A stretch of DNA of 64,000 bases, from assembly GCA_014816185.1 (NCBI GenBank), contig GCA_014816185.1_4095.1. The stretch is one strand, 5' to 3'. The notes under the pieces are model-generated. The model did no database searches. It was not told the origin of the DNA and saw nothing but the letters and a program-made list of their open reading frames with translations. The DNA is from a phage. Shown here one piece after another: positions 44,926 to 55,937 of the stretch. Both the position numbers and the translations under genes were made by a program. Numbering within the stretch: the first letter of the stretch is position 1; each line of letters starts with the position of its first letter.

Positions 44926-45113
44926 CAGTTGAAGAAGTTAAAAAAGTACTGGCAGTACTACGCTATCATAACCATTGCAAGGTTAAGAATGATCCTGATT
45001 ATGTTGATTCATCCCTGGAGGAAGACACATTAAACGCAATAAGCCATATGCAAACATTAGCAAAGCGTATGACCGAAAAGAATAGACCGGACTATATCGG
45101 AAATAAAATTTAA
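44922..45113 (+). CDS. hypothetical protein
   Basis: 63 aa; ATGA coupling. Confidence 0.4.
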   Translation: MTVEEVKKVLAVLRYHNHCKVKNDPDYVDSSLEEDTLNAISHMQTLAKRMTEKNRPDYIGNKI

Positions 45114-47748: not shown

Positions 47749-47997
47749 TGCGTAAAGGGATCTAGTACTGATTCAGAAAAAAGTCAAGGCGTTTTTAAAA
47801 TTATGCGTTAAAAAAATGCATAGGTAATCCCTTGACTTTTTTGAAATAAAAGGGATTGGACTATGGCAAAATGCGTAGGGGGCTAAAGGGCGGGTAACCT
47901 TAGCGACTTCGATAAAGGGGTATTACGAATAAAATGTTATTGACTTTTTATATGAATCGTATAAAATATGATCGATAATAATTTTAAGGGAGTCCCT

Positions 47998-48195
47998 ATG
48001 CGTATTTTAACTAAAGAACAGCACCACGAAAGACTTATCAATAACATGGCTATGATAATGTATAAGTCCCATGACCGTGGTATTGCCTATAAGCGTGAAT
48101 TAATTATGGCACTATTCATTGGAACTAACTTTCAGGAAAGGTATGTCAACGATTGGATTTGGTATTTAATTGAAGATATAACGAGTAAACTATGA
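47998..48195 (+). CDS. GTNYQE-family small protein (first member)
   Basis: start MRILTKEQ; motif IGTNFQERYV; C-term ITSKL. Confidence 0.55.
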   Translation: MRILTKEQHHERLINNMAMIMYKSHDRGIAYKRELIMALFIGTNFQERYVNDWIWYLIEDITSKL

Positions 48196-48392
48196 AAATG
48201 CGTATTTTAAATAAAGAAGAATATCAATCACTGTTACGTAAAAACTTCACAAAGATTTATAATACAGACACACACGTAGAACGAATGGAGTTATACCTTT
48301 TGATTACTTTGGGAACTAACTATCAGGAAAGATGGGTGATTCAATATATGGATACATTGAAAAATAAAATATTGTCCACGAGGAAACAATGA
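48192..48392 (+). CDS. GTNYQE-family small protein
   Basis: LGTNYQERWV; ATGA overlap. Confidence 0.55.
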   Translation: MKMRILNKEEYQSLLRKNFTKIYNTDTHVERMELYLLITLGTNYQERWVIQYMDTLKNKILSTRKQ

Positions 48393-48598
48393 AAACTATA
48401 ACACGAACCCAATCATACGGTCTTATCTTGAAATACATGGACTTAATGGTGGATATCAGCAAAGACCTTCCTAAAACTGAAATTGAAGTTGCAAGAGCAG
48501 AGATCCGCATGTTGGCTGTACTGAACACAAACCATCAGGAAGATTATGTTGAAGAATGGATTCGATTTTTAATTCAAGATATAAAGAGTAAATTATGA
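48389..48598 (+). CDS. GTNYQE-family small protein
   Basis: LNTNHQEDYV..IKSKL. Confidence 0.55.
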   Translation: MKTITRTQSYGLILKYMDLMVDISKDLPKTEIEVARAEIRMLAVLNTNHQEDYVEEWIRFLIQDIKSKL

Positions 48599-48810
48599 TT
48601 ATTATAGAAAACTCATATCAATATACTGAACGCATCGCTGCCAGACAACTTGAAATCCTCATAATATACGAAGAGACTTCTGATTTAAACTTAGCCGAGG
48701 TATTGGAAAATGATATACTATTGGGTGCATTCTTAGGAACAGACTATCAGAAGTATTATGAGGAAAAGTATTTGTCATCTCTTGAGAAATATATCAGGAG
48801 CAAATTATGA
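48595..48810 (+). CDS. GTNYQE-family small protein
   Basis: LGTDYQKYY..IRSKL. Confidence 0.55.
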   Translation: MIIIENSYQYTERIAARQLEILIIYEETSDLNLAEVLENDILLGAFLGTDYQKYYEEKYLSSLEKYIRSKL

Positions 48811-49019
48811 TTTTTTTAACACCAGAAGAATATAAGAAACGTTTCAATTCCGCACAGGGTGAAATCTTACTTATATACCTTTCAAATGCAGACCTTAACT
48901 TATCAAGGGTATTAGAAAAAGATTTACTTATGGGTGCATTCCTTGATACAGACTTTCAGGTGTATTATGTAGGGGAATACTTAATTGCACTTCAAAATTA
49001 TATCAGGAGTAAACTATGA
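48807..49019 (+). CDS. GTNYQE-family small protein
   Basis: close paralog of 48595. Confidence 0.55.
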   Translation: MIFLTPEEYKKRFNSAQGEILLIYLSNADLNLSRVLEKDLLMGAFLDTDFQVYYVGEYLIALQNYIRSKL

Positions 49020-49234
49020 AACATTTAAGTAACTCCGAGAAGAATAAAATTATCGTTGCTGCAATAAACAAATATTTTACACTTCCTCACACAGAAGGTT
49101 TATGTGTAAGGGAACACAGGATAAACACCACCGATATACGCATGATGGCTGTACTGGGGACGAACTTTCAGGAAGAGTATGTTGTTGCACACATAGTTGC
49201 CCTCACTGATTTAATAAGGGACAAATGCAAATGA
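49016..49234 (+). CDS. GTNYQE-family small protein
   Basis: LGTNFQEEYV. Confidence 0.55.
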   Translation: MKHLSNSEKNKIIVAAINKYFTLPHTEGLCVREHRINTTDIRMMAVLGTNFQEEYVVAHIVALTDLIRDKCK

Positions 49235-49539
49235 AACACTTAACTGATGATGAATTTGAAACTATAATTCGTAAACTAACCCCCATCACAAGGATAGTCT
49301 ACGGTGACCCCAGCCTTACATGGAACCAAATGCGAGCTAAAGTTAATGAGCTATGGTTGCTGTACTTTATGGGGACTCAATATCAAGATAAGTTTTGCAC
49401 AGAATATATCGAACAATTAACGAATGTTATACAGGATAAACTAGATGATTATTTGCTCACAAAACATGAAGATTTTATCAGGAGTGGAGTATCAGACTGC
49501 CCTCTTCTCTCTTCTAAACACCCTCCGCACGAACAATAA
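49225..49539 (+). CDS. GTNYQE-family protein with C-terminal read-through extension
   Basis: MGTQYQDKF; junction reads aaactaGATGA where the family pattern would be aaactATGA, so the stop is lost and the ORF runs 31 codons into the next gene. Confidence 0.45.
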   Translation: MQMKHLTDDEFETIIRKLTPITRIVYGDPSLTWNQMRAKVNELWLLYFMGTQYQDKFCTEYIEQLTNVIQDKLDDYLLTKHEDFIRSGVSDCPLLSSKHPPHEQ

Positions 49540-49717
49540 ACTTTATAATTCCCGTGAAGCTGATATCGTCAACGCTGATGTATATCTTAATAAATTCATA
49601 GGGACTAACTATCAAGAACTGTTCACTCTACGATATATCGCTGCATTGAGAAACGAAATATCAGATAAAACCCGTCAAGCCAGAAGAGAATGGAATAAAC
49701 AATGCGACACAGACTAA
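49445..49717 (+). CDS. GTNYQE-family small protein
   Basis: IGTNYQELF. Confidence 0.5.
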   Translation: MIICSQNMKILSGVEYQTALFSLLNTLRTNNKLYNSREADIVNADVYLNKFIGTNYQELFTLRYIAALRNEISDKTRQARREWNKQCDTD

Positions 49718-49953
49718 ATCACAAAATGTATTGTAAACTATTACAGACACTGGCACAGAAACACTATGACACTGTATCTGAAATATTACCCTATGATATC
49801 ATGCGTTTAATTCATAGTGAGGCAGAGATGCTTGTACTGATGACAGGCACTGATAAAAAAGCAATTGCCAAATCAATAGATATGTTCATCGAAGCACAAT
49901 GTCAACACATTAGAACCGAGATATGGAGACGAGAGAATGATAACACTAAATGA
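49702..49953 (+). CDS. GTNYQE-family-like small protein (divergent)
   Basis: MTGTDKKAI in place of the motif. Confidence 0.45.
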   Translation: MRHRLNHKMYCKLLQTLAQKHYDTVSEILPYDIMRLIHSEAEMLVLMTGTDKKAIAKSIDMFIEAQCQHIRTEIWRRENDNTK

Positions 49954-50152
49954 GTTTCAGTATCATTGGAGGTTACAAACTATCAAATCAAAAGTGTATA
50001 GTATTGTGTTAAACAAATCTATTGCACAAGAGGACAAATGTGTTATAATAGCTGAAATGAAGTTGGGTGCTTTCGTAGGGACAAACTATCAAAACATCTA
50101 CACTGACGTATTGTTAAGTGCCTTACGTAACAAGGTGGTATCCAAAATATGA
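49937..50152 (+). CDS. GTNYQE-family small protein
   Basis: VGTNYQNIY. Confidence 0.55.
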   Translation: MITLNEFQYHWRLQTIKSKVYSIVLNKSIAQEDKCVIIAEMKLGAFVGTNYQNIYTDVLLSALRNKVVSKI

Positions 50153-50367
50153 GAAATTTACAAGGCTTTGAATACATCAGACTCCTGAAAACATGTGGAA
50201 GCAGAAGGAGAATGATATCAAGCGATAAGAGCATCCAAGCTAACCTTAAGCACGCACTAGTAACTGAACTCTATGTAGGTGCACTCTTAGGCACAAACTA
50301 TCAACAAATGTATGTGGATCTATGGATTGACGCTCTACAGAAAGAGGTTAAAAGTAAATGCAAATGA
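50149..50367 (+). CDS. GTNYQE-family small protein
   Basis: LGTNYQQMYV. Confidence 0.55.
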   Translation: MRNLQGFEYIRLLKTCGSRRRMISSDKSIQANLKHALVTELYVGALLGTNYQQMYVDLWIDALQKEVKSKCK

Positions 50368-50576
50368 TTAATTTAAGTAAAGACGAATTTTATGTTATAC
50401 TGGCGAAAACTTATCCAGCACGTAAGGCCGTTTATGATAGTCACATTATTGAACCCTCAAAGAAGTTGATTTTAGTAAATGAGATAAAGATGCTTTCAGT
50501 CTTAGGAACAAACTATCAAGAGAATGCTGTACTGATGTTAATTGATGCCCTCCAGCGAGAGGTTAAACGTAAATGA
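50358..50576 (+). CDS. GTNYQE-family small protein
   Basis: LGTNYQENAV. Confidence 0.55.
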   Translation: MQMINLSKDEFYVILAKTYPARKAVYDSHIIEPSKKLILVNEIKMLSVLGTNYQENAVLMLIDALQREVKRK

Positions 50577-50803
50577 AAATGATTAATTTAACTTACCATG
50601 AATATCAAAAACGTTTAAATGCATCCAGAGATATAAGGATTCAAATATTCAATAACAAAAGATTGAAGCCTGATATCAGGAAAATCAAAATCATAGAAGC
50701 CGTGTTGTGCAACTTCCTAGGGACTAACTATCAGGAAGGTAAGGTAGAAAACTATCTTATAGAACTCATGAATAGTATTGAAAATAAATGTAAGGGTAAT
50801 TAA
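50573..50803 (+). CDS. GTNYQE-family small protein
   Basis: LGTNYQEGKV; 3' end duplicated at 51038-51076. Confidence 0.55.
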   Translation: MKMINLTYHEYQKRLNASRDIRIQIFNNKRLKPDIRKIKIIEAVLCNFLGTNYQEGKVENYLIELMNSIENKCKGN

Positions 50804-50804
50804 C

Positions 50805-51044
50805 ATGAAAATGATTAAATTATCTCAAGCAAAATATAAAGAACGCCTGGTAAAAATTGCACCTGGACTTAATGAAATCCATCACGGAGAAGTCATTAAA
50901 CACGGAAATAAGATGATTATGAAACTTGAGTTAAAGGTGGGTGCATTCATAGGAACAAACTATCAGGAGTATTATGTAGATGAATACATAATCGCACTTA
51001 AGAGATACATTGGAAGAAAACTATATCTACAAACTAAAGAATAG
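50805..51044 (+). CDS. GTNYQE-family small protein
   Basis: start MKMIKLSQ; IGTNYQEYYV. Confidence 0.55.
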   Translation: MKMIKLSQAKYKERLVKIAPGLNEIHHGEVIKHGNKMIMKLELKVGAFIGTNYQEYYVDEYIIALKRYIGRKLYLQTKE

Positions 51045-51073
51045 TATTGAAAATAAATGTAAGGGTAATTAAC

Positions 51074-51394
51074 ATGCAAATGATCAATTTAAGTAAAGAT
51101 GAATATACCGAGCGTATGACAAAAATTACGCACAAACGTAATACAATCTATCACAACCCAGAAATTCAACACAGTAAGAAAATGATTATGATGCGTGAGT
51201 TAAAGATGGGTGTATTCTTAGGAACAAACTATCAAGATACAGAAGTAAATCGCTTAATCGCGGAGTTGCTACTGGAAATCAGAGGTAAGCTGTACTTTCA
51301 TCAAATGACCCAACCACTGAGGTGTACTAAGAAATGTTCAACATCACATTGCAAGAAAGATTCATCCGAATCAACTATGCAATTACCAAATTAG
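51074..51394 (+). CDS. GTNYQE-family protein with C-terminal extension
   Basis: start MQMINLSK; LGTNYQDTEV; extends ~40 codons past family length into next gene. Confidence 0.45.
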   Translation: MQMINLSKDEYTERMTKITHKRNTIYHNPEIQHSKKMIMMRELKMGVFLGTNYQDTEVNRLIAELLLEIRGKLYFHQMTQPLRCTKKCSTSHCKKDSSESTMQLPN

Positions 51395-51549
51395 ATGCTA
51401 CTATAGGATTCCAAAGTCTACCATACAAAACCAGATTGTTATTAGAGTGTGAAGCTAAGTTGGGTGTACTGTTAGGGACGCAACACCAACAACGATATGT
51501 GGAAATCTGGATTGACCTTTTAACCCAAAATATATATGAGAGAATGTAA
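51334..51549 (+). CDS. GTNYQE-family small protein
   Basis: LGTQHQQRYV. Confidence 0.5.
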   Translation: MFNITLQERFIRINYAITKLDATIGFQSLPYKTRLLLECEAKLGVLLGTQHQQRYVEIWIDLLTQNIYERM

Positions 51550-51780
51550 ATGCAAAATGAAATGATATACTTAACGAATGAAGAATTTCAAGAGAAGATG
51601 TTAAAAACCAAAAACATTACTCTTAAGTTCGTTCCAAATCAATCAATATCTGAAGTATCTGCAAATGTATTGTTTCAGAAGCTACCATACGTTCTTGGAA
51701 CTGATAAACAAGAATTTATGGTTCAAAATATGATTGAACATCTTATAATGAGTATTAAGGAAAAAGTAAATGCAAAATGA
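51550..51780 (+). CDS. GTNYQE-family small protein
   Basis: LGTDKQEFMV. Confidence 0.55.
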   Translation: MQNEMIYLTNEEFQEKMLKTKNITLKFVPNQSISEVSANVLFQKLPYVLGTDKQEFMVQNMIEHLIMSIKEKVNAK

Positions 51781-52024
51781 AATGATATACTTAACCTATA
51801 ATGAATACGTCGAGAGATTAGTTCGTGCCAAGAGATATACCAATAAACGTCCAATTGACCTAAACCAAACCCCAGCAGAAAGGAGTGCAGAAGTATTATT
51901 CCAATCACTACCATATCTTCTGGGAACTGATAGACAAGAGGAATATGTTGCACGTATGATTAGATATCTTAAAATCACTATTAAGGAAAAAGTAAATGCA
52001 AATGAAATACTTAACAGACGATGA
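51770..52024 (+). CDS. GTNYQE-family small protein
   Basis: LGTDRQEEYV; paralog of 51550. Confidence 0.55.
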   Translation: MQNEMIYLTYNEYVERLVRAKRYTNKRPIDLNQTPAERSAEVLFQSLPYLLGTDRQEEYVARMIRYLKITIKEKVNANEILNRR

Positions 52025-52247
52025 GTTAAAAGAACGACTAATTAAATCAAGAAAACATACAAATCAACTTCCAAACGACACAAACAAGTCTCCAGCGGAA
52101 AGGAGTGCAGAAGTTTTATACATTCAACTCATGTACTTTCTTGGCACTGACAGACAAGAGTATTACATTGAAAGTATGCTTCGATATCTTAAATTCTCTA
52201 TAAAGGAAAAGATACATGATCAAGTATTTAAAAATCCTAACTGCTAA
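51996..52247 (+). CDS. GTNYQE-family small protein
   Basis: LGTDRQEYYI. Confidence 0.55.
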   Translation: MQMKYLTDDELKERLIKSRKHTNQLPNDTNKSPAERSAEVLYIQLMYFLGTDRQEYYIESMLRYLKFSIKEKIHDQVFKNPNC

Positions 52248-52458
52248 TGAATATCATAAGATTGTAATGAAGACTAATAGTGCTTACGCTAAAAAATCAA
52301 ACCCCAAGTACATACTGGAACACACATTTGAAGAACGTCAATTAGCTTTAGTTGAAGCAAAACTTCTTGCACTATTAGGAACAAACTATCAGGAAGAATA
52401 CAATAGAAAACTAATATACCTTTTAACTAAACATATAAGAAAAAGAAAAAATGCATGA
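52216..52458 (+). CDS. GTNYQE-family small protein
   Basis: LGTNYQEEY. Confidence 0.55.
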   Translation: MIKYLKILTANEYHKIVMKTNSAYAKKSNPKYILEHTFEERQLALVEAKLLALLGTNYQEEYNRKLIYLLTKHIRKRKNA

Positions 52459-52685
52459 AACACTTGACAGATGATGAACATGGGCTTATAGTAATGGATG
52501 TAATCAACATCGAATACAAAAAGTTGATACGCTATCGTTGTTATGAAGATAAGCAACTCGTTCTAGCAGAACAGAAGTTGTTTCGACTCTTAAACACAAA
52601 CTACCAAGCACAATACGAAGAATCGTATATGTACCTTTTGGCGAGGAAAGCAAAAAGAGATTATGAAAATTTTAAGCAAAGGTGA
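52455..52685 (+). CDS. GTNYQE-family small protein
   Basis: LNTNYQAQY. Confidence 0.55.
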   Translation: MKHLTDDEHGLIVMDVINIEYKKLIRYRCYEDKQLVLAEQKLFRLLNTNYQAQYEESYMYLLARKAKRDYENFKQR

Positions 52686-52884
52686 TTCAGTAATATTACT
52701 TATAGAGAGTTCAAGTAAATTCTTAAACATAACACTGTCTGATATAGATGAAGATGATAAAGAAGTACTGAGAGCAGATTTAAGAGTACTGTTACATATC
52801 GGAACAAACCTACAAGAAGAATATGTAGAGTGCTACATTAATGAACTTAAAGAATCAGTACTGAGAAAATGCAAATGCAAATGA
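52663..52884 (+). CDS. GTNYQE-family small protein
   Basis: IGTNLQEEYV. Confidence 0.55.
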   Translation: MKILSKGDSVILLIESSSKFLNITLSDIDEDDKEVLRADLRVLLHIGTNLQEEYVECYINELKESVLRKCKCK

Positions 52885-53108
52885 AAATCATTTCACCCAC
52901 AGAATACAACCAACTATTAAGTAGTTTAATTCTAAAGCTGTTTATAACAAAAAGCATGAAATTACCAGATGATGAAATAAGTATTCTAGTAAGTGAAATC
53001 TATGTTCAAGCTACACTAGGGACTAACTATCAAGAATGCAATATTAATGATTACATCAATGAACTAAAAAGGTTTATCCAATGCAAATGCGAATCATTAC
53101 CGAAGTAG
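52869..53108 (+). CDS. GTNYQE-family small protein
   Basis: LGTNYQECN. Confidence 0.55.
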   Translation: MQMQMKIISPTEYNQLLSSLILKLFITKSMKLPDDEISILVSEIYVQATLGTNYQECNINDYINELKRFIQCKCESLPK

Positions 53109-53323
53109 AATACCTAACAATCATAAATGGACTGTTTTCGAAGTTATTTGCCATTAACACATCAAAACTTCCAGATTCTGATAAAATTATTAAGTTAAAT
53201 GAAATCTACGTTCAAGCTACTCTAGGAACAAACTATCAAGAAGCCAATGTGTATAATTACATTAATACACTCAAAAGGGTAATACAATTAAAATGCACAG
53301 ACAGCACACACACAAACCCCTAG
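53081..53323 (+). CDS. GTNYQE-family small protein
   Basis: LGTNYQEANV; close paralog of 52869. Confidence 0.55.
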   Translation: MQMRIITEVEYLTIINGLFSKLFAINTSKLPDSDKIIKLNEIYVQATLGTNYQEANVYNYINTLKRVIQLKCTDSTHTNP

Positions 53324-53523
53324 GAACAGCAGAATACATTGAACTAATGGCTGCAAACTTCTCATCCTTTAAGAAACTGATGCAAGAATCAAAGAATGAT
53401 TTAGAATATCACATCAAAAGTTCAGATTTAAGATTGCTACTCACTCTAGGAACAGATTCCCAAGAGCGATTTGTCAATGAGCATATTAGAGCACTTTTAA
53501 ATGGCATCAGGAATAAACTATGA
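53293..53523 (+). CDS. GTNYQE-family small protein
   Basis: LGTDSQERFV. Confidence 0.5.
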   Translation: MHRQHTHKPLGTAEYIELMAANFSSFKKLMQESKNDLEYHIKSSDLRLLLTLGTDSQERFVNEHIRALLNGIRNKL

Positions 53524-53735
53524 AGGAAATATCAAATCAAGAGTACTTGGCACTATTCAGGAAGAATAATCACAAATATATGGCACTTGATTCAAGAACT
53601 GATATAAGTGAACTTGAAAAAAATCTTTTGCGTTCAGAGATGATAGTACTGACACTCTTAGGAACACAGCATCAAGAGAGAACTGTTAATTCACACATAG
53701 GGATTCTTATGCAGATAGTTCAGGAAAAGATATGA
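53520..53735 (+). CDS. GTNYQE-family small protein
   Basis: LGTQHQERTV. Confidence 0.55.
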   Translation: MKEISNQEYLALFRKNNHKYMALDSRTDISELEKNLLRSEMIVLTLLGTQHQERTVNSHIGILMQIVQEKI

Positions 53736-53953
53736 GAATCATAACACAACAAGATATTCTTAAGTTCACAAGGGTTCATGCATCTGAATTTGATGCTATA
53801 TTATCAAAAAGTTACAACAACCCTTATACACAAGATGTACATTACAGTGAATTATGGATGTATATACTTTTAGGTACAAATAAGCAAGAGCAAGCCGTAC
53901 AGAAGTATTTGACAGCTTTACGTGATGCTACTGCTAATGGAGTATGTGTTTAA
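53732..53953 (+). CDS. GTNYQE-family small protein
   Basis: LGTNKQEQAV. Confidence 0.55.
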   Translation: MRIITQQDILKFTRVHASEFDAILSKSYNNPYTQDVHYSELWMYILLGTNKQEQAVQKYLTALRDATANGVCV

Positions 53954-53954
53954 T

Positions 53955-54197
53955 ATGAAAGTACTGACAGAACTAGAAATGTATCATAGATTTAATAAGT
54001 ACTATCATTTACTTAAGCCTATACAGAGGATTAAATGTCCATTTGAAGAGAAACAGGTTTTAATCTATGAGCACAAGTTCTTTGTATCATTAGGTACAGA
54101 TCAACAAGAGTACTATTTGACGTTGTACTTGATTACATTAATAGATTTAATTCACTATAAAACCAAACAAGCTAATAAAGAGAAATATGAAAACTAA
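53955..54197 (+). CDS. GTNYQE-family small protein (last in array)
   Basis: start MKVLTELE; LGTDQQEYYL. Confidence 0.5.
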   Translation: MKVLTELEMYHRFNKYYHLLKPIQRIKCPFEEKQVLIYEHKFFVSLGTDQQEYYLTLYLITLIDLIHYKTKQANKEKYEN

Positions 54198-54531
54198 TAT
54201 ACAACTCAAGGTATATAAATCATTTGAACATACATATATCAAAAGTAGTCTATGTAGAGATGTAATGGATTACAAGGGTAAGCCATTCACAATTACCTAT
54301 GATTCTTATGTTAGTGATTTATATATATCATTTGTTAATTACGAAAATAAAATATACAAGCACGTTGATATTAAAGATTTAAGTACTTTATCACCAGAGG
54401 AATACTTTCAGGAATCATTAGTATGGGATTTAGAGTTTCCTATGCCATTAGTACATAAGATGATAGTACTAATGAAAGAATCTAAACAGGAGCCTAATGG
54501 TGATTATGAAGAACACACAGTTGAGTACTGA
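54187..54531 (+). CDS. FQxSL-family protein
   Basis: LSPEEYFQESLVWDLEFP. Confidence 0.55.
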   Translation: MKTNIQLKVYKSFEHTYIKSSLCRDVMDYKGKPFTITYDSYVSDLYISFVNYENKIYKHVDIKDLSTLSPEEYFQESLVWDLEFPMPLVHKMIVLMKESKQEPNGDYEEHTVEY

Positions 54532-54892
54532 TAATATTAAGAGTTATACAAGCTCAAGTACTGTGACAATCGAAGTGAATTCTATTAATGCTGGTAATGC
54601 AGTAGATAAGTTCTTTATTGCTCAAGGGTACAGGAAAGATATTCATCAATATTGTTCAGTATATGGGGAGTACAATAGTACTGAAGATATAATTTATTGG
54701 TCAACACATCAAGATTATCTAACTAAAATTGGAGTTCCAGATGTTAGTACTTTATCTGAAGAAGAATACTTTCAGTACAGCTTAGTACATGATGTACCTA
54801 TACCTTTAGGGTTAATCAAGGGTATACAGGAAGAGGTTCATAAGCTTAAATCCATGAGTAAAGGTACTTTCATTAGAACAGTGCAATACTAG
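54497..54892 (+). CDS. FQxSL-family protein
   Basis: LSEEEYFQYSLVHDVP; start may be 54506. Confidence 0.55.
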   Translation: MVIMKNTQLSTDNIKSYTSSSTVTIEVNSINAGNAVDKFFIAQGYRKDIHQYCSVYGEYNSTEDIIYWSTHQDYLTKIGVPDVSTLSEEEYFQYSLVHDVPIPLGLIKGIQEEVHKLKSMSKGTFIRTVQY

Positions 54893-54951
54893 CTTGACAG
54901 TACTTTTCATTACTGATATAGTACACTAACGTTAATCATAGGGTAAAAATT

Positions 54952-55197
54952 ATGTTAAATTTTTTAAATTTCCTTATCGTTTTGTGTATTGTTCTTGGGA
55001 TTGCACCATTTGTATTGTATTTCATGGATTCAGATGAAATGCAGAAGATGAATTGCACAAGGACAGGACAGAGTAGAGTAGAGACGATTCTTATGCCTGT
55101 TACGGTTATTGTTAACAACATGCCCATTACGAACATGGTCCCTACCCTAACGACAACGTACCAGTACTCTTGTGCTGACGGTGAGAGGTGGAGATGA
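54952..55197 (+). CDS. small membrane protein
   Basis: 81 aa; hydrophobic N-terminus. Confidence 0.45.
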   Translation: MLNFLNFLIVLCIVLGIAPFVLYFMDSDEMQKMNCTRTGQSRVETILMPVTVIVNNMPITNMVPTLTTTYQYSCADGERWR

Positions 55198-55505
55198 AAT
55201 TTAATATAGCAAAAACATCGAGTATATGTATTTTTGGTTATGCTGATGAGTTAGGTGATATTGACATTCTTTTGTACAAAAAGGATGGTGTTATGCATTT
55301 CAAGTACCAGGATGAAGAGGCAGACAATTATCCTTTACCTAATTTAGTACAAATGCAGGAAGATGAATTATTCCAGTACAGCTTAGTATACGACATTGAT
55401 ATTTGCACGATGCCAGTACTAATTAGTATTCAAAAAGTGATGCTCGATATGTATGATAAGCTAATACAAGGTACATCAGGGAGAATCATTGAAATTGACA
55501 TATAA
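55188..55505 (+). CDS. FQxSL-family protein
   Basis: QEDELFQYSLVYDID. Confidence 0.55.
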   Translation: MEMKFNIAKTSSICIFGYADELGDIDILLYKKDGVMHFKYQDEEADNYPLPNLVQMQEDELFQYSLVYDIDICTMPVLISIQKVMLDMYDKLIQGTSGRIIEIDI

Positions 55506-55701
55506 GAATATACCTAATGCATATGAAATGAAGTACAGGGAGTTTATTAAAAATGTACACACCGATCCTTTTAATATCAAAATATCAGATTTTGATGTAT
55601 TATTTTATCTAGGGACAATAGCACAGGATCAATGCGTTGATAAGCTCATATGGTCCTTGAAAATGGAGATACAATGCAGACCCAAATATATAAAAAGGTA
55701 G
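55489..55701 (+). CDS. GTNYQE-like small protein embedded in FQxSL array
   Basis: FYLGTIAQDQCV. Confidence 0.45.
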   Translation: MKLTYKNIPNAYEMKYREFIKNVHTDPFNIKISDFDVLFYLGTIAQDQCVDKLIWSLKMEIQCRPKYIKR

Positions 55702-55937
55702 ATTCTTTATTGTACGCTTCAAAGTACAGGGATTTTTGTTTACGAGGGGGAGAGGAAGATTTCTCTCTGAGATTATCTGAATTTAATATGTTATTTTATC
55801 TTGGTACAAAAGATCAAGAAGATACAGTACAGAAATTTATCAAGCACCTTGAACAAAAAATTCATATGCAAATTTTTATGCTTAAGGTACATAATGAGAT
55901 AAACAAATATGAACCCAACAATAGTACAGGATCTTAA
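55674..55937 (+). CDS. GTNYQE-like small protein embedded in FQxSL array
   Basis: start MQTQIYKK; FYLGTKDQEDTV. Confidence 0.45.
   Translation: MQTQIYKKVDSLLYASKYRDFCLRGGEEDFSLRLSEFNMLFYLGTKDQEDTVQKFIKHLEQKIHMQIFMLKVHNEINKYEPNNSTGS

Follow-up and report, generated by a model that had tools for sequence, protein, structure and literature searches.

The small-gene array described here lies in a 64,000-nucleotide stretch of DNA (hereafter, the window) from an Asteriusvirus jumbo coliphage, and has probably been shaped by recombination and gene conversion at recurrent gene-boundary modules, together with two separate single-base stop losses. The oddities flagged in the original prediction, an irregular junction, a duplicated junction and two over-long genes, are ordinary tandem-array evolution and involve no new mechanism. 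Thirty-five Asteriusvirus-like records match the window, whose identity to phAPEC6 is 99.5%.

The array consists of approximately 28 paralogous small genes arranged head to tail on the plus strand at 47998-54197 (all features described below are on this strand), encoding proteins of 65-106 aa that carry the motif LGT[ND]xQ and belong to family phrog_4148. An HMM built from window members returned 27 contiguous matches and two weak ones, the latter corresponding to outlying members at 55489-55937. Of nine genes tested, eight (49225, 49445, 50573, 50805, 51074, 50358, 48192 and 51334) gave significant, near-full-length profile matches to phrog_4148, with E values from 1.3e-7 to 9e-27; gene 49702 and the outlying 55.5-55.9 kb members were too diverged to match or matched only weakly. 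The paralogs align with a mean identity of 28%, with T51 invariant and G50, Q54 and L65 at least 90% conserved. The array is a polycistronic, tandem set of about 30 diverged paralogs, three-helix proteins of roughly 70 aa with no assigned function; phrog_4148 carries none. A promoter and terminator scan found no excess over shuffled sequence, with a single weak plus-strand terminator match inside the array. The locus is syntenic, being collinear with 17 relatives and with an IMG/VR contig taken as 121Q. By tblastn the family was found only in 36 Asteriusvirus-like records, and a profile search of 1.84 billion representatives matched only 91 small proteins.

At 25 of the 28 array junctions, neighbouring genes overlap by 0-32 nt or are separated by a 1-nt gap. 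The outliers are a 74-nt overlap (gene 49225), a 61-nt overlap (gene 51074) and a single 29-nt non-coding gap after gene 50805. Stop/start overlaps of the 4-nt ATGA form occur at 10 of the 28 junctions, and ATGCAAATGA-type junctions at four. Translational coupling of overlapping phage genes is well established, and it is on this basis that the ATGA overlaps are read here as coupled.

An exact 38-nt direct repeat, GAATAGTATTGAAAATAAATGTAAGGGTAATTAACATG, is present at 50770-50807 and 51039-51076, with a spacing of 269 nt. No other exact direct repeat in the 8.1-kb array is as long; in 200 shuffled versions, the longest one had a mean length of 13.4 nt and a maximum of 18. Copy 1 comprises the 3' end of gene 50573 (50573-50803), whose product terminates in ENYLIELMNSIENKCKGN, followed by one spacer base and the start codon (ATG) of gene 50805. 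The original prediction had described this duplicated junction as a recombination scar, and it does appear to be a genuine recombination footprint, but the string reported there is 34 nt long and is actually located at 50774-50807 and 51043-51076, placing the earlier first-copy coordinates off by approximately 4-8 nt. The scar is not new in the window genome, as at least nine relatives have both copies. Copy 2 is polymorphic among them, matching copy 1 at 38/38 positions in five of nine relatives, 34/38 in three, and 27/38 in one (UE-S1). The state of copy 2 does not track overall relatedness: it is 38/38 in PBECO4, which is 93.5% identical to the window overall, but 34/38 in phAPEC6, at 99.5%.

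The unit bounded by this repeat carries gene 50805 (50805-51044), which encodes a normal body up to ...IGRKL. The six residues that follow, YLQTKE, form a fused tail reading into a remnant (51015-51073) of a 50573-type gene's 3' end. In its own frame, the remnant reads NYIYKLKNSIENKCKGN followed by a stop, and it aligns with the ends of the WPEC3, Turkey3 and TH47 orthologs. It begins at a 10-nt microhomology, AGAAAACTAT (51015-51024; partner at 50746-50755), and contains the only non-coding gap of the array (51045-51073). Beyond the upstream edge of the exact 38-mer, the two copies resemble each other little except at AGAAAACTAT, with about 8 of 15 positions matching in the intervening stretch, so that the outer boundary of the remnant is uncertain.

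Gene 50805 behaves as a variable cassette. In tblastn searches it was 100% identical in 19 records, 96% in one and 71% in four, with 12 further records containing only paralogs of at most 55% identity. It is absent from UB, the contig taken as 121Q, Turkey3, TH47, Ecwhy_1 and vB_Ec-M-J, and in WPEC3, CMSTMSU and fEgEco12 a 70%-identical version is found at another array position, upstream of the 50358 ortholog. UB and the contig taken as 121Q are shorter than the window by exactly 269 nt, the length of the gene 50805 unit, and retain a single 38-mer; in the latter, the AAGGGTAATTAAC junction already lies directly upstream of the 51074-type gene. The 269-nt difference could mean either that a 121Q/UB-like array gained the unit or that a window-like array lost it. 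We also considered whether the scar arose by microhomology deletion of an intact paralog, 'Z', between genes 50805 and 51074, and rejected this candidate, given that no relative retains such a gene.

A second repeated junction at 51546-51795 displays the same arrangement: cassette gene 51550 lies between two exact copies of a 30-mer, at 51546-51575 and 51766-51795, spaced by 220 nt. BF17, PBECO4, E9.1 and JP4 each lack exactly 220 nt and have one 30-mer left. Relatives that are 98-100% identical in the flanking genes differ by exactly one 269-nt or 220-nt cassette with repeated junctions at its borders. Per-gene identities across relatives are mosaic, ranging from 30% to 100%, and the 15 differences between phAPEC6 and the window over approximately 6 kb are clustered, seven of them falling within 20 nt and five within 63 nt. 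The former cluster, at 50196-50215, separates the window from both phAPEC6 and BF17, and the protein encoded by the gene containing it is 100% identical in SHEFM2K, G17 and UB; judged from its sequence, this patch looks like a conversion or recombination tract. Breakpoints of identity blocks were mildly enriched near gene starts (median 43.5 versus 55.3 nt, p ~0.04), a marginal effect at approximately 20-nt resolution. The unit-length cassette differences and the patchy differences from phAPEC6 bear out the earlier suggestion that rearrangement of the array is ongoing, on the timescale of the sequenced isolates.

The two over-long genes have a different origin. Gene 49225 (49225-49539) is listed as an ORF of 104 aa ending at TAA 49537-49539, and the same 315-nt CDS is annotated in phAPEC6 as gp483c. 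At 49441-49448 the junction with its neighbour reads CTAGATGA, with the neighbour's ATG at 49445, and the ORF continues for 31 codons beyond this ATG. Both of these features had been reported correctly, but the accompanying interpretation of the extra G as a recent event that removed a stop does not hold, since the register is common to all relatives and involves no new insertion: AAACTA[G/A]ATGA was found in 17 of 17 relatives examined (14 with G, 3 with A). Past ...QDKL, gene 49225 instead carries a conserved 14-aa tail (DDYLLTKHEDFIRS), which is conserved across four alleles, including NERIVEKYENFIKH, DEYIHAKYEDFIRS and NESIIAKYKNFIKH, and is followed by 17 new residues derived from a stop loss. 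The lost stop is at 49486-49488, where the window has GGA and 13 of 17 aligned relatives have TGA. The T-to-G change at 49486 is common to a sub-clade formed by the window and the other four (phAPEC6, BF17, SHEFM2K and ECO103), and is synonymous in the overlapping downstream frame (GTT to GTG, Val). This site is also a recurrent allele-switch point, with identity blocks ending at approximately 49475 in E9.1, JP4, WPEC3, CMSTMSU and Turkey3. The next array gene (49445-49717) starts either at 49445, a conserved ATG after AGGA, or at 49466, which gives the family-typical MKIL...; its phrog_4148 match starts at residue 8, and in the contig taken as 121Q the second ATG is absent (NIKTLSS).

Gene 51074 (51074-51394) was likewise noted as over-long, and this was confirmed. 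Its product is 106 aa and comprises a conserved 14-aa tail (YFHQMTQPLRCTKK) and 19 extra residues, with a 61-nt overlap between the gene and gene 51334 (51334-51549), compared to 87 aa and termination at an ATGA overlap for its counterpart in relatives. The cause is a private A-to-T change at 51337, which converts the stop at 51335-51337 from TGA, the state of every compared relative having this junction, to TGT. All eight aligned relatives have A at this position, none of 18 full-length phage records was 100% identical over an 86-nt query, and no 21-mer covering 51337 is common to any relative. The substitution also alters codon 2 of gene 51334 from Ile to Phe and breaks the ATGA-overlap coupling that is usual in relatives with this junction, phAPEC6 among them; this would be expected to make coupled translation of the downstream gene weaker. 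When IMG/VR and JGI metagenomes were scanned for exact patterns, neither the T nor the A version of 51337 turned up, so these scans are uninformative on whether the T version circulates.

It might be argued that this assembly is simply wrong at the odd junction, at the repeat and in the over-long ORFs, and the change at 51337 could indeed be a sequencing or consensus error, as it is private to the window and approximately nine private single-base variants of this sort occur in 11.8 kb of it. However, the private variants are of mixed types, and the 51337 change is a substitution outside any homopolymer. Moreover, independently sequenced phages from several countries carry the junction at 49441, the GGA codon at 49486 and the two repeat copies, and the recurrence of the same states in independent genomes excludes sequencing error for these three features. 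As a general explanation, assembly artefacts are therefore improbable. Selection for the extensions as functional features, such as programmed overlaps or fusion tails with a regulatory effect on the gene downstream, is very unlikely. The 49486 stop loss does persist in at least five isolates and the ancestral 14-aa tails are conserved as protein, but the 17 and 19 residues gained come from reading the neighbouring gene out of frame and are missing in most relatives, one of them being private to the window genome. In addition, the change at 49486 leaves the product of the overlapping gene unaltered, as expected of a hitch-hiking neutral change, and no slippery or recoding motif was seen.

A recent tandem duplication in this genome could in principle have produced genes 50805 and 51074 together with their junction, the 38-mer being identical because it is young, and in-register similarity does extend from AGAAAACTAT over 226 nt (76%) at the 269-nt spacing. 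We nevertheless regard this as unlikely. The bodies of the two proteins share only 48% amino-acid identity, orthologs of gene 51074 from phages without gene 50805 are 93-100% identical to it, a 50805-type gene occupies another array position in WPEC3-like phages, and UE-S1 carries both copies of the 38-mer at only 27/38 identity. Collectively, these observations imply that the duplication is old and that the perfect 38-mer reflects later homogenisation or re-acquisition.

The preferred account, recombination at boundary modules combined with independent stop losses, would operate as follows. A module is short and conserved and comprises the 3' codons of one gene, which also serve as a ribosome-binding site, the overlapping stop and start, and a conserved 5' end. 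This anatomy, the states found in relatives and the exact unit-length polymorphisms are direct observations. We infer that such modules provide the sequence homology at which unequal recombination and gene conversion take place, both within a genome and between co-infecting relatives, so that whole one-gene cassettes may be inserted, deleted or swapped. The 38-nt duplicated junction and the 3'-end remnant would be what one exchange of this kind, affecting cassette gene 50805, left behind, with the joint at AGAAAACTAT; since then, homogenisation has probably acted on the repeat copies in some lineages, and other lineages lack one unit. The over-long genes are separate from this process: both already possessed conserved tails of approximately 14 aa, and each lost its stop by one substitution, predicted to extend translation out of frame into the next gene by 17 codons for gene 49225 and 19 codons for gene 51074. 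A more speculative extension, which we consider doubtful, is that the modules are maintained as recombination sites, with cassette exchange diversifying a host-interaction or counter-defence repertoire of three-helix proteins across the phage population. As an alternative to such maintenance, the array may be passively decaying from old duplications.

Tandemly arrayed gene families evolve by unequal crossing-over and gene conversion. Examples of such families are treated in PMC1855330 and PMC4232551. The present array resembles this general class in that direct repeats bound a variable unit, copy number differs by exact units, homogenised tracts are short and the arrangement is polycistronic. 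It differs in its boundary repeats of 30-38 nt, in its paralogs of approximately 28% identity and in residing in a lytic phage, where exchange probably also occurs between co-infecting phages. [quoted passage not shown] 2017, mBio, PMC5646251), and the contig taken as 121Q has this gene series in common with the window, along with the 38-mer junction. The 121Q paper does not cover junction anatomy, cassette polymorphism, conversion patches or stop losses, and its characterization of the genes as very similar contrasts with the 28% mean paralog identity measured here. No description of the array was found in the phAPEC6, Sharanji, fEgEco12 and CBB papers or in the review by Iyer et al., leaving Hua et al. 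2017 as the only one of these sources to mention it. In another jumbo phage, Bacillus phage G, one small-protein family has likewise undergone a large lineage-specific expansion, in that case to approximately 35 zinc-ribbon genes (Iyer et al. 2021, PMC7824862), but the fold is unrelated, the family here being a three-helix bundle with no metal-binding motif.

These results correct what appeared to be frameshift or assembly problems in a jumbo-phage genome, and provide a nucleotide-level view of a 30-gene phage array gaining, losing and swapping single-gene cassettes via boundary repeats of 30-38 nt. The array is a tractable natural case of viral tandem-array dynamics, and the analysis should be useful for annotation of Asteriusvirus genomes. 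Among the Asteriusvirus records, gene calls within the array vary widely from record to record.

The window matches Asteriusvirus jumbo coliphages (35 records in total, with phAPEC6 99.5% and BF17 99.3% identical), and an HMM built from local genes gave 27 consecutive matches on the + strand at 47998-54197, a head-to-tail array of small paralogous genes named here by their start coordinates, along with two weak family members at 55489-55937. The array genes match PHROG family phrog_4148, which is without assigned function (E down to 9e-27), and have no above-threshold match in Pfam, NCBIfam, or PADLOC. Mean identity among 30 aligned paralogs is only 28%, with T51 invariant, G50, Q54, and L65 nearly invariant, and a shared motif, LGT[ND]xQ. 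AlphaFold2 applied to this alignment returned a confident three-helix bundle (pLDDT 96.6), and none of its structural neighbors was informative. The family was detected in 36 phage records by tblastn and in 91 representatives among 1.84 billion proteins by profile search, and is essentially restricted to the Asteriusvirus-like phage group. An array of >30 very similar genes has been noted in phage 121Q (Hua et al. 2017, PMC5646251); we found no further description of the array in the literature. Within the array, the gene at 49702-49953 has a family-like length and helical pattern (…LMTGTDKKAIAKS…) and matches neither phrog_4148 nor the window-built HMM, which makes it either a strongly diverged member of the family or a gene that replaced one.

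The 28 gene junctions of the array served as a baseline. Ten are 4-nt ATGA overlaps, four are 10-11-nt ATGCAAATGA-type overlaps, eight are overlaps of 16-32 nt, and three abut or leave a 1-nt gap. The others are a 29-nt gap after gene 50805 (1/28) and overlaps of 74 nt for gene 49225 and 61 nt for gene 51074 (2/28), so the junctions flagged in the original prediction are true outliers, although the cta-tga arrangement that it took as the family pattern is just one of several normal types.

An exact 38-nt direct repeat, with copies at 50770-50807 (copy 1) and 51039-51076 (copy 2) spaced 269 nt, is longer than any other in the array; the maximum in shuffled sequences was 18 nt. Copy 1 consists of the genuine 3' end of gene 50573 (...NSIENKCKGN*) and the ATG of gene 50805, and copy 2 lies between genes 50805 and 51074. 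From the 10-mer AGAAAACTAT (51015-51024), which also occurs within gene 50573 at 50746-50755, down to copy 2, the sequence reads NYIYKLKNSIENKC... in its own frame, a C-terminus of a 50573-type gene that is typical of the family, so that gene 50805 ends in a fused 6-residue tail. Directly after this tail lies the sole non-coding spacer of the array.

The repeat is polymorphic among relatives. Two copies identical at 38/38 positions are present in PBECO4, BF17, E9.1, ECO103, and JP4, at 34/38 in phAPEC6, SHEFM2K, and G17, and at 27/38 in UE-S1. Copy 2 of the 34/38 group carries GAGGTTGATGAAC, a junction that also precedes the 51074 ortholog in WPEC3, CMSTMSU, fEgEco12, Ecwhy_1, and UE-S1. UB and the contig taken as 121Q have one 38-mer, lack gene 50805, and are each exactly 269 nt shorter, representing either the pre-insertion state or the product of deletion between the repeats. 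Gene 50805 is also absent from Turkey3, TH47, Ecwhy_1, and vB_Ec-M-J, and in WPEC3, CMSTMSU, and fEgEco12 a 50805-type gene, 70% identical, lies upstream of the 50358 ortholog. These states are not congruent with overall relatedness, phAPEC6 being 99.5% identical to the window yet 34/38 and PBECO4 93.5% identical yet 38/38, and are what would be produced by cassette exchange with short-tract homogenization. The original reading of the duplicated junction as a recombination scar is supported, and the original observation as a whole is correct except for minor slips in coordinates. The gene 50805 product (50805-51023) is 100% identical in 19 phage records, in which neighboring array genes range from 50% to 100%, suggesting recent spread or strong constraint. 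The CMSTMSU record (L010, MH494197, UNVERIFIED) has 39 fragmented HMM matches and broken ORFs across the array, likely frameshift-type sequence errors, and is therefore a poor reference for junction states.

A second, independent case is the exact 30-mer pair at 51546-51575 and 51766-51795 (spacing 220 nt) flanking gene 51550; BF17, PBECO4, E9.1, and JP4 have only one copy of the 30-mer and are shorter by exactly 220 nt. Along the array, identity per gene to each relative swings from 30% to 100%. The window and phAPEC6 differ at only 15 positions in ~6 kb, 12 of which cluster within two short stretches (50196-50215 and 51008-51070). There is a mild enrichment of block boundaries close to gene starts (median 43.5 nt vs 55.3 nt expected, p ~0.04, at coarse resolution). 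Another breakpoint lies at 51328, just 5' of a gene boundary, where the exact match ends in nine relatives, including SP27, BAU.Micro_ELP-22, CRJP21, vB_Ec-M-J, Ecwhy_1, WPEC3, WPEC5, fEgEco12, and EC.P1; beyond it, those examined have a different gene (MNAMN...) replacing 51334. Between the 49016 and 49225 orthologs (window region 49016-49234), PBECO4, JP4, and G17 have two additional array genes that are absent from the window and phAPEC6, another cassette-level difference.

At the 49441 junction (49441-49539), the sequence is as originally described, with an extra G proposed to remove the stop of gene 49225, a reading that is not supported. AAACTA[G/A]ATGA is present in 17/17 aligned relatives (G in 14, A in 3), so the register is ancestral and reflects neither a recent insertion nor an error. 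Thirteen of these relatives end the upstream gene at a TGA matching 49486-49488, which leaves a 14-residue tail after ...KL whose protein sequence is conserved among diverged alleles (DDYLLTKHEDFIRS, DEYIHAKYEDFIRS, NERIVEKYENFIKH; NESIIAKYKNFIKH in the contig taken as 121Q). The true cause of the stop loss, in a gene with ancestral register and tail, is a T->G change at 49486: the window, phAPEC6, BF17, SHEFM2K, and ECO103 have GGA in place of TGA, so that the ORF runs 17 codons further, to 49537-49539 (TAA). For the overlapping downstream frame the substitution is synonymous (GTT->GTG). It coincides with the point at which the window passes from an E9.1-like allele upstream to a G17-like allele downstream, where high-identity blocks recurrently end (~49475 in five relatives). 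Two starts are possible for the downstream gene: 49445, a conserved ATG preceded by AGGA and the sole one available in the contig taken as 121Q, and 49466, which yields a family-typical N-terminus.

Gene 51074 is over-long, as proposed. Its product in relatives is 87 aa, including the conserved tail YFHQMTQPLRCTKK, and all relatives carrying this junction read ...AAGAAATGA... with the standard ATGA overlap. In the window, a T at 51337 converts TGA to TGT, which adds 19 codons (to 51394) and makes the second codon of gene 51334 Phe instead of Ile. Over this segment all 18 full-length phage matches differ from the window, and 21-mers spanning 51337 are shared with no relative. Scans of IMG/VR and JGI metagenomes for the exact pattern detected it in neither form, T or A. 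With about nine private single-base variants in 11.8 kb, of mixed types and including 51337, the change is plausibly real, although it may instead be a consensus error. The other variants, private relative to the genomes examined and likewise mixed in substitution type, are at 44984, 45443, 45633, 45727, 46202, 46624, 48995, and 54733. Rearrangement can fairly be called ongoing in the phage population, but apart from the private 51337 change the events are not unique to this genome.

The anatomy, the exact unit-length polymorphisms, and the clustering of substitutions are directly shown. We infer that conserved boundary modules, in which 3' codons double as a Shine-Dalgarno sequence next to an overlapping stop/start and a 5' end that is itself conserved, supply the homology on which unequal recombination and gene conversion act, with exchange taking place both inside concatemeric genomes and between phages that co-infect a cell. 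Both stop losses would be simple substitutions, tolerated because the added residues prolong tails that were under loose constraint to begin with. Coupled translation of gene 51334 is probably reduced without the ATGA overlap, the only Shine-Dalgarno-like sequence upstream of this gene being a GAGG ~12 nt away. The case is one of ordinary tandem-array evolution in an array already noted; its practical use lies chiefly in annotation, and it cleanly illustrates the dynamics of cassettes in a jumbo phage.

A sigma-70-like site (47940-47967, TTGACT-16-TAAAAT, 10/12) lies directly upstream of the first array gene, the sole + strand terminator-like match within the array is weak (53780-53796), and terminator-like sites did not exceed their frequency in shuffles. 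This pattern is consistent with a single long transcript, but promoter-like sites likewise showed no excess over shuffles. A second, unrelated small paralog family lies 3' of the array at 54187-55505, comprising genes 54187, 54497, and 55188, which share '...EEYFQ(Y/E)SLV.D...'. The SHEFM2K annotation places this family in phrog_13866, and the direct-repeat families D12 and D13 derive from it.
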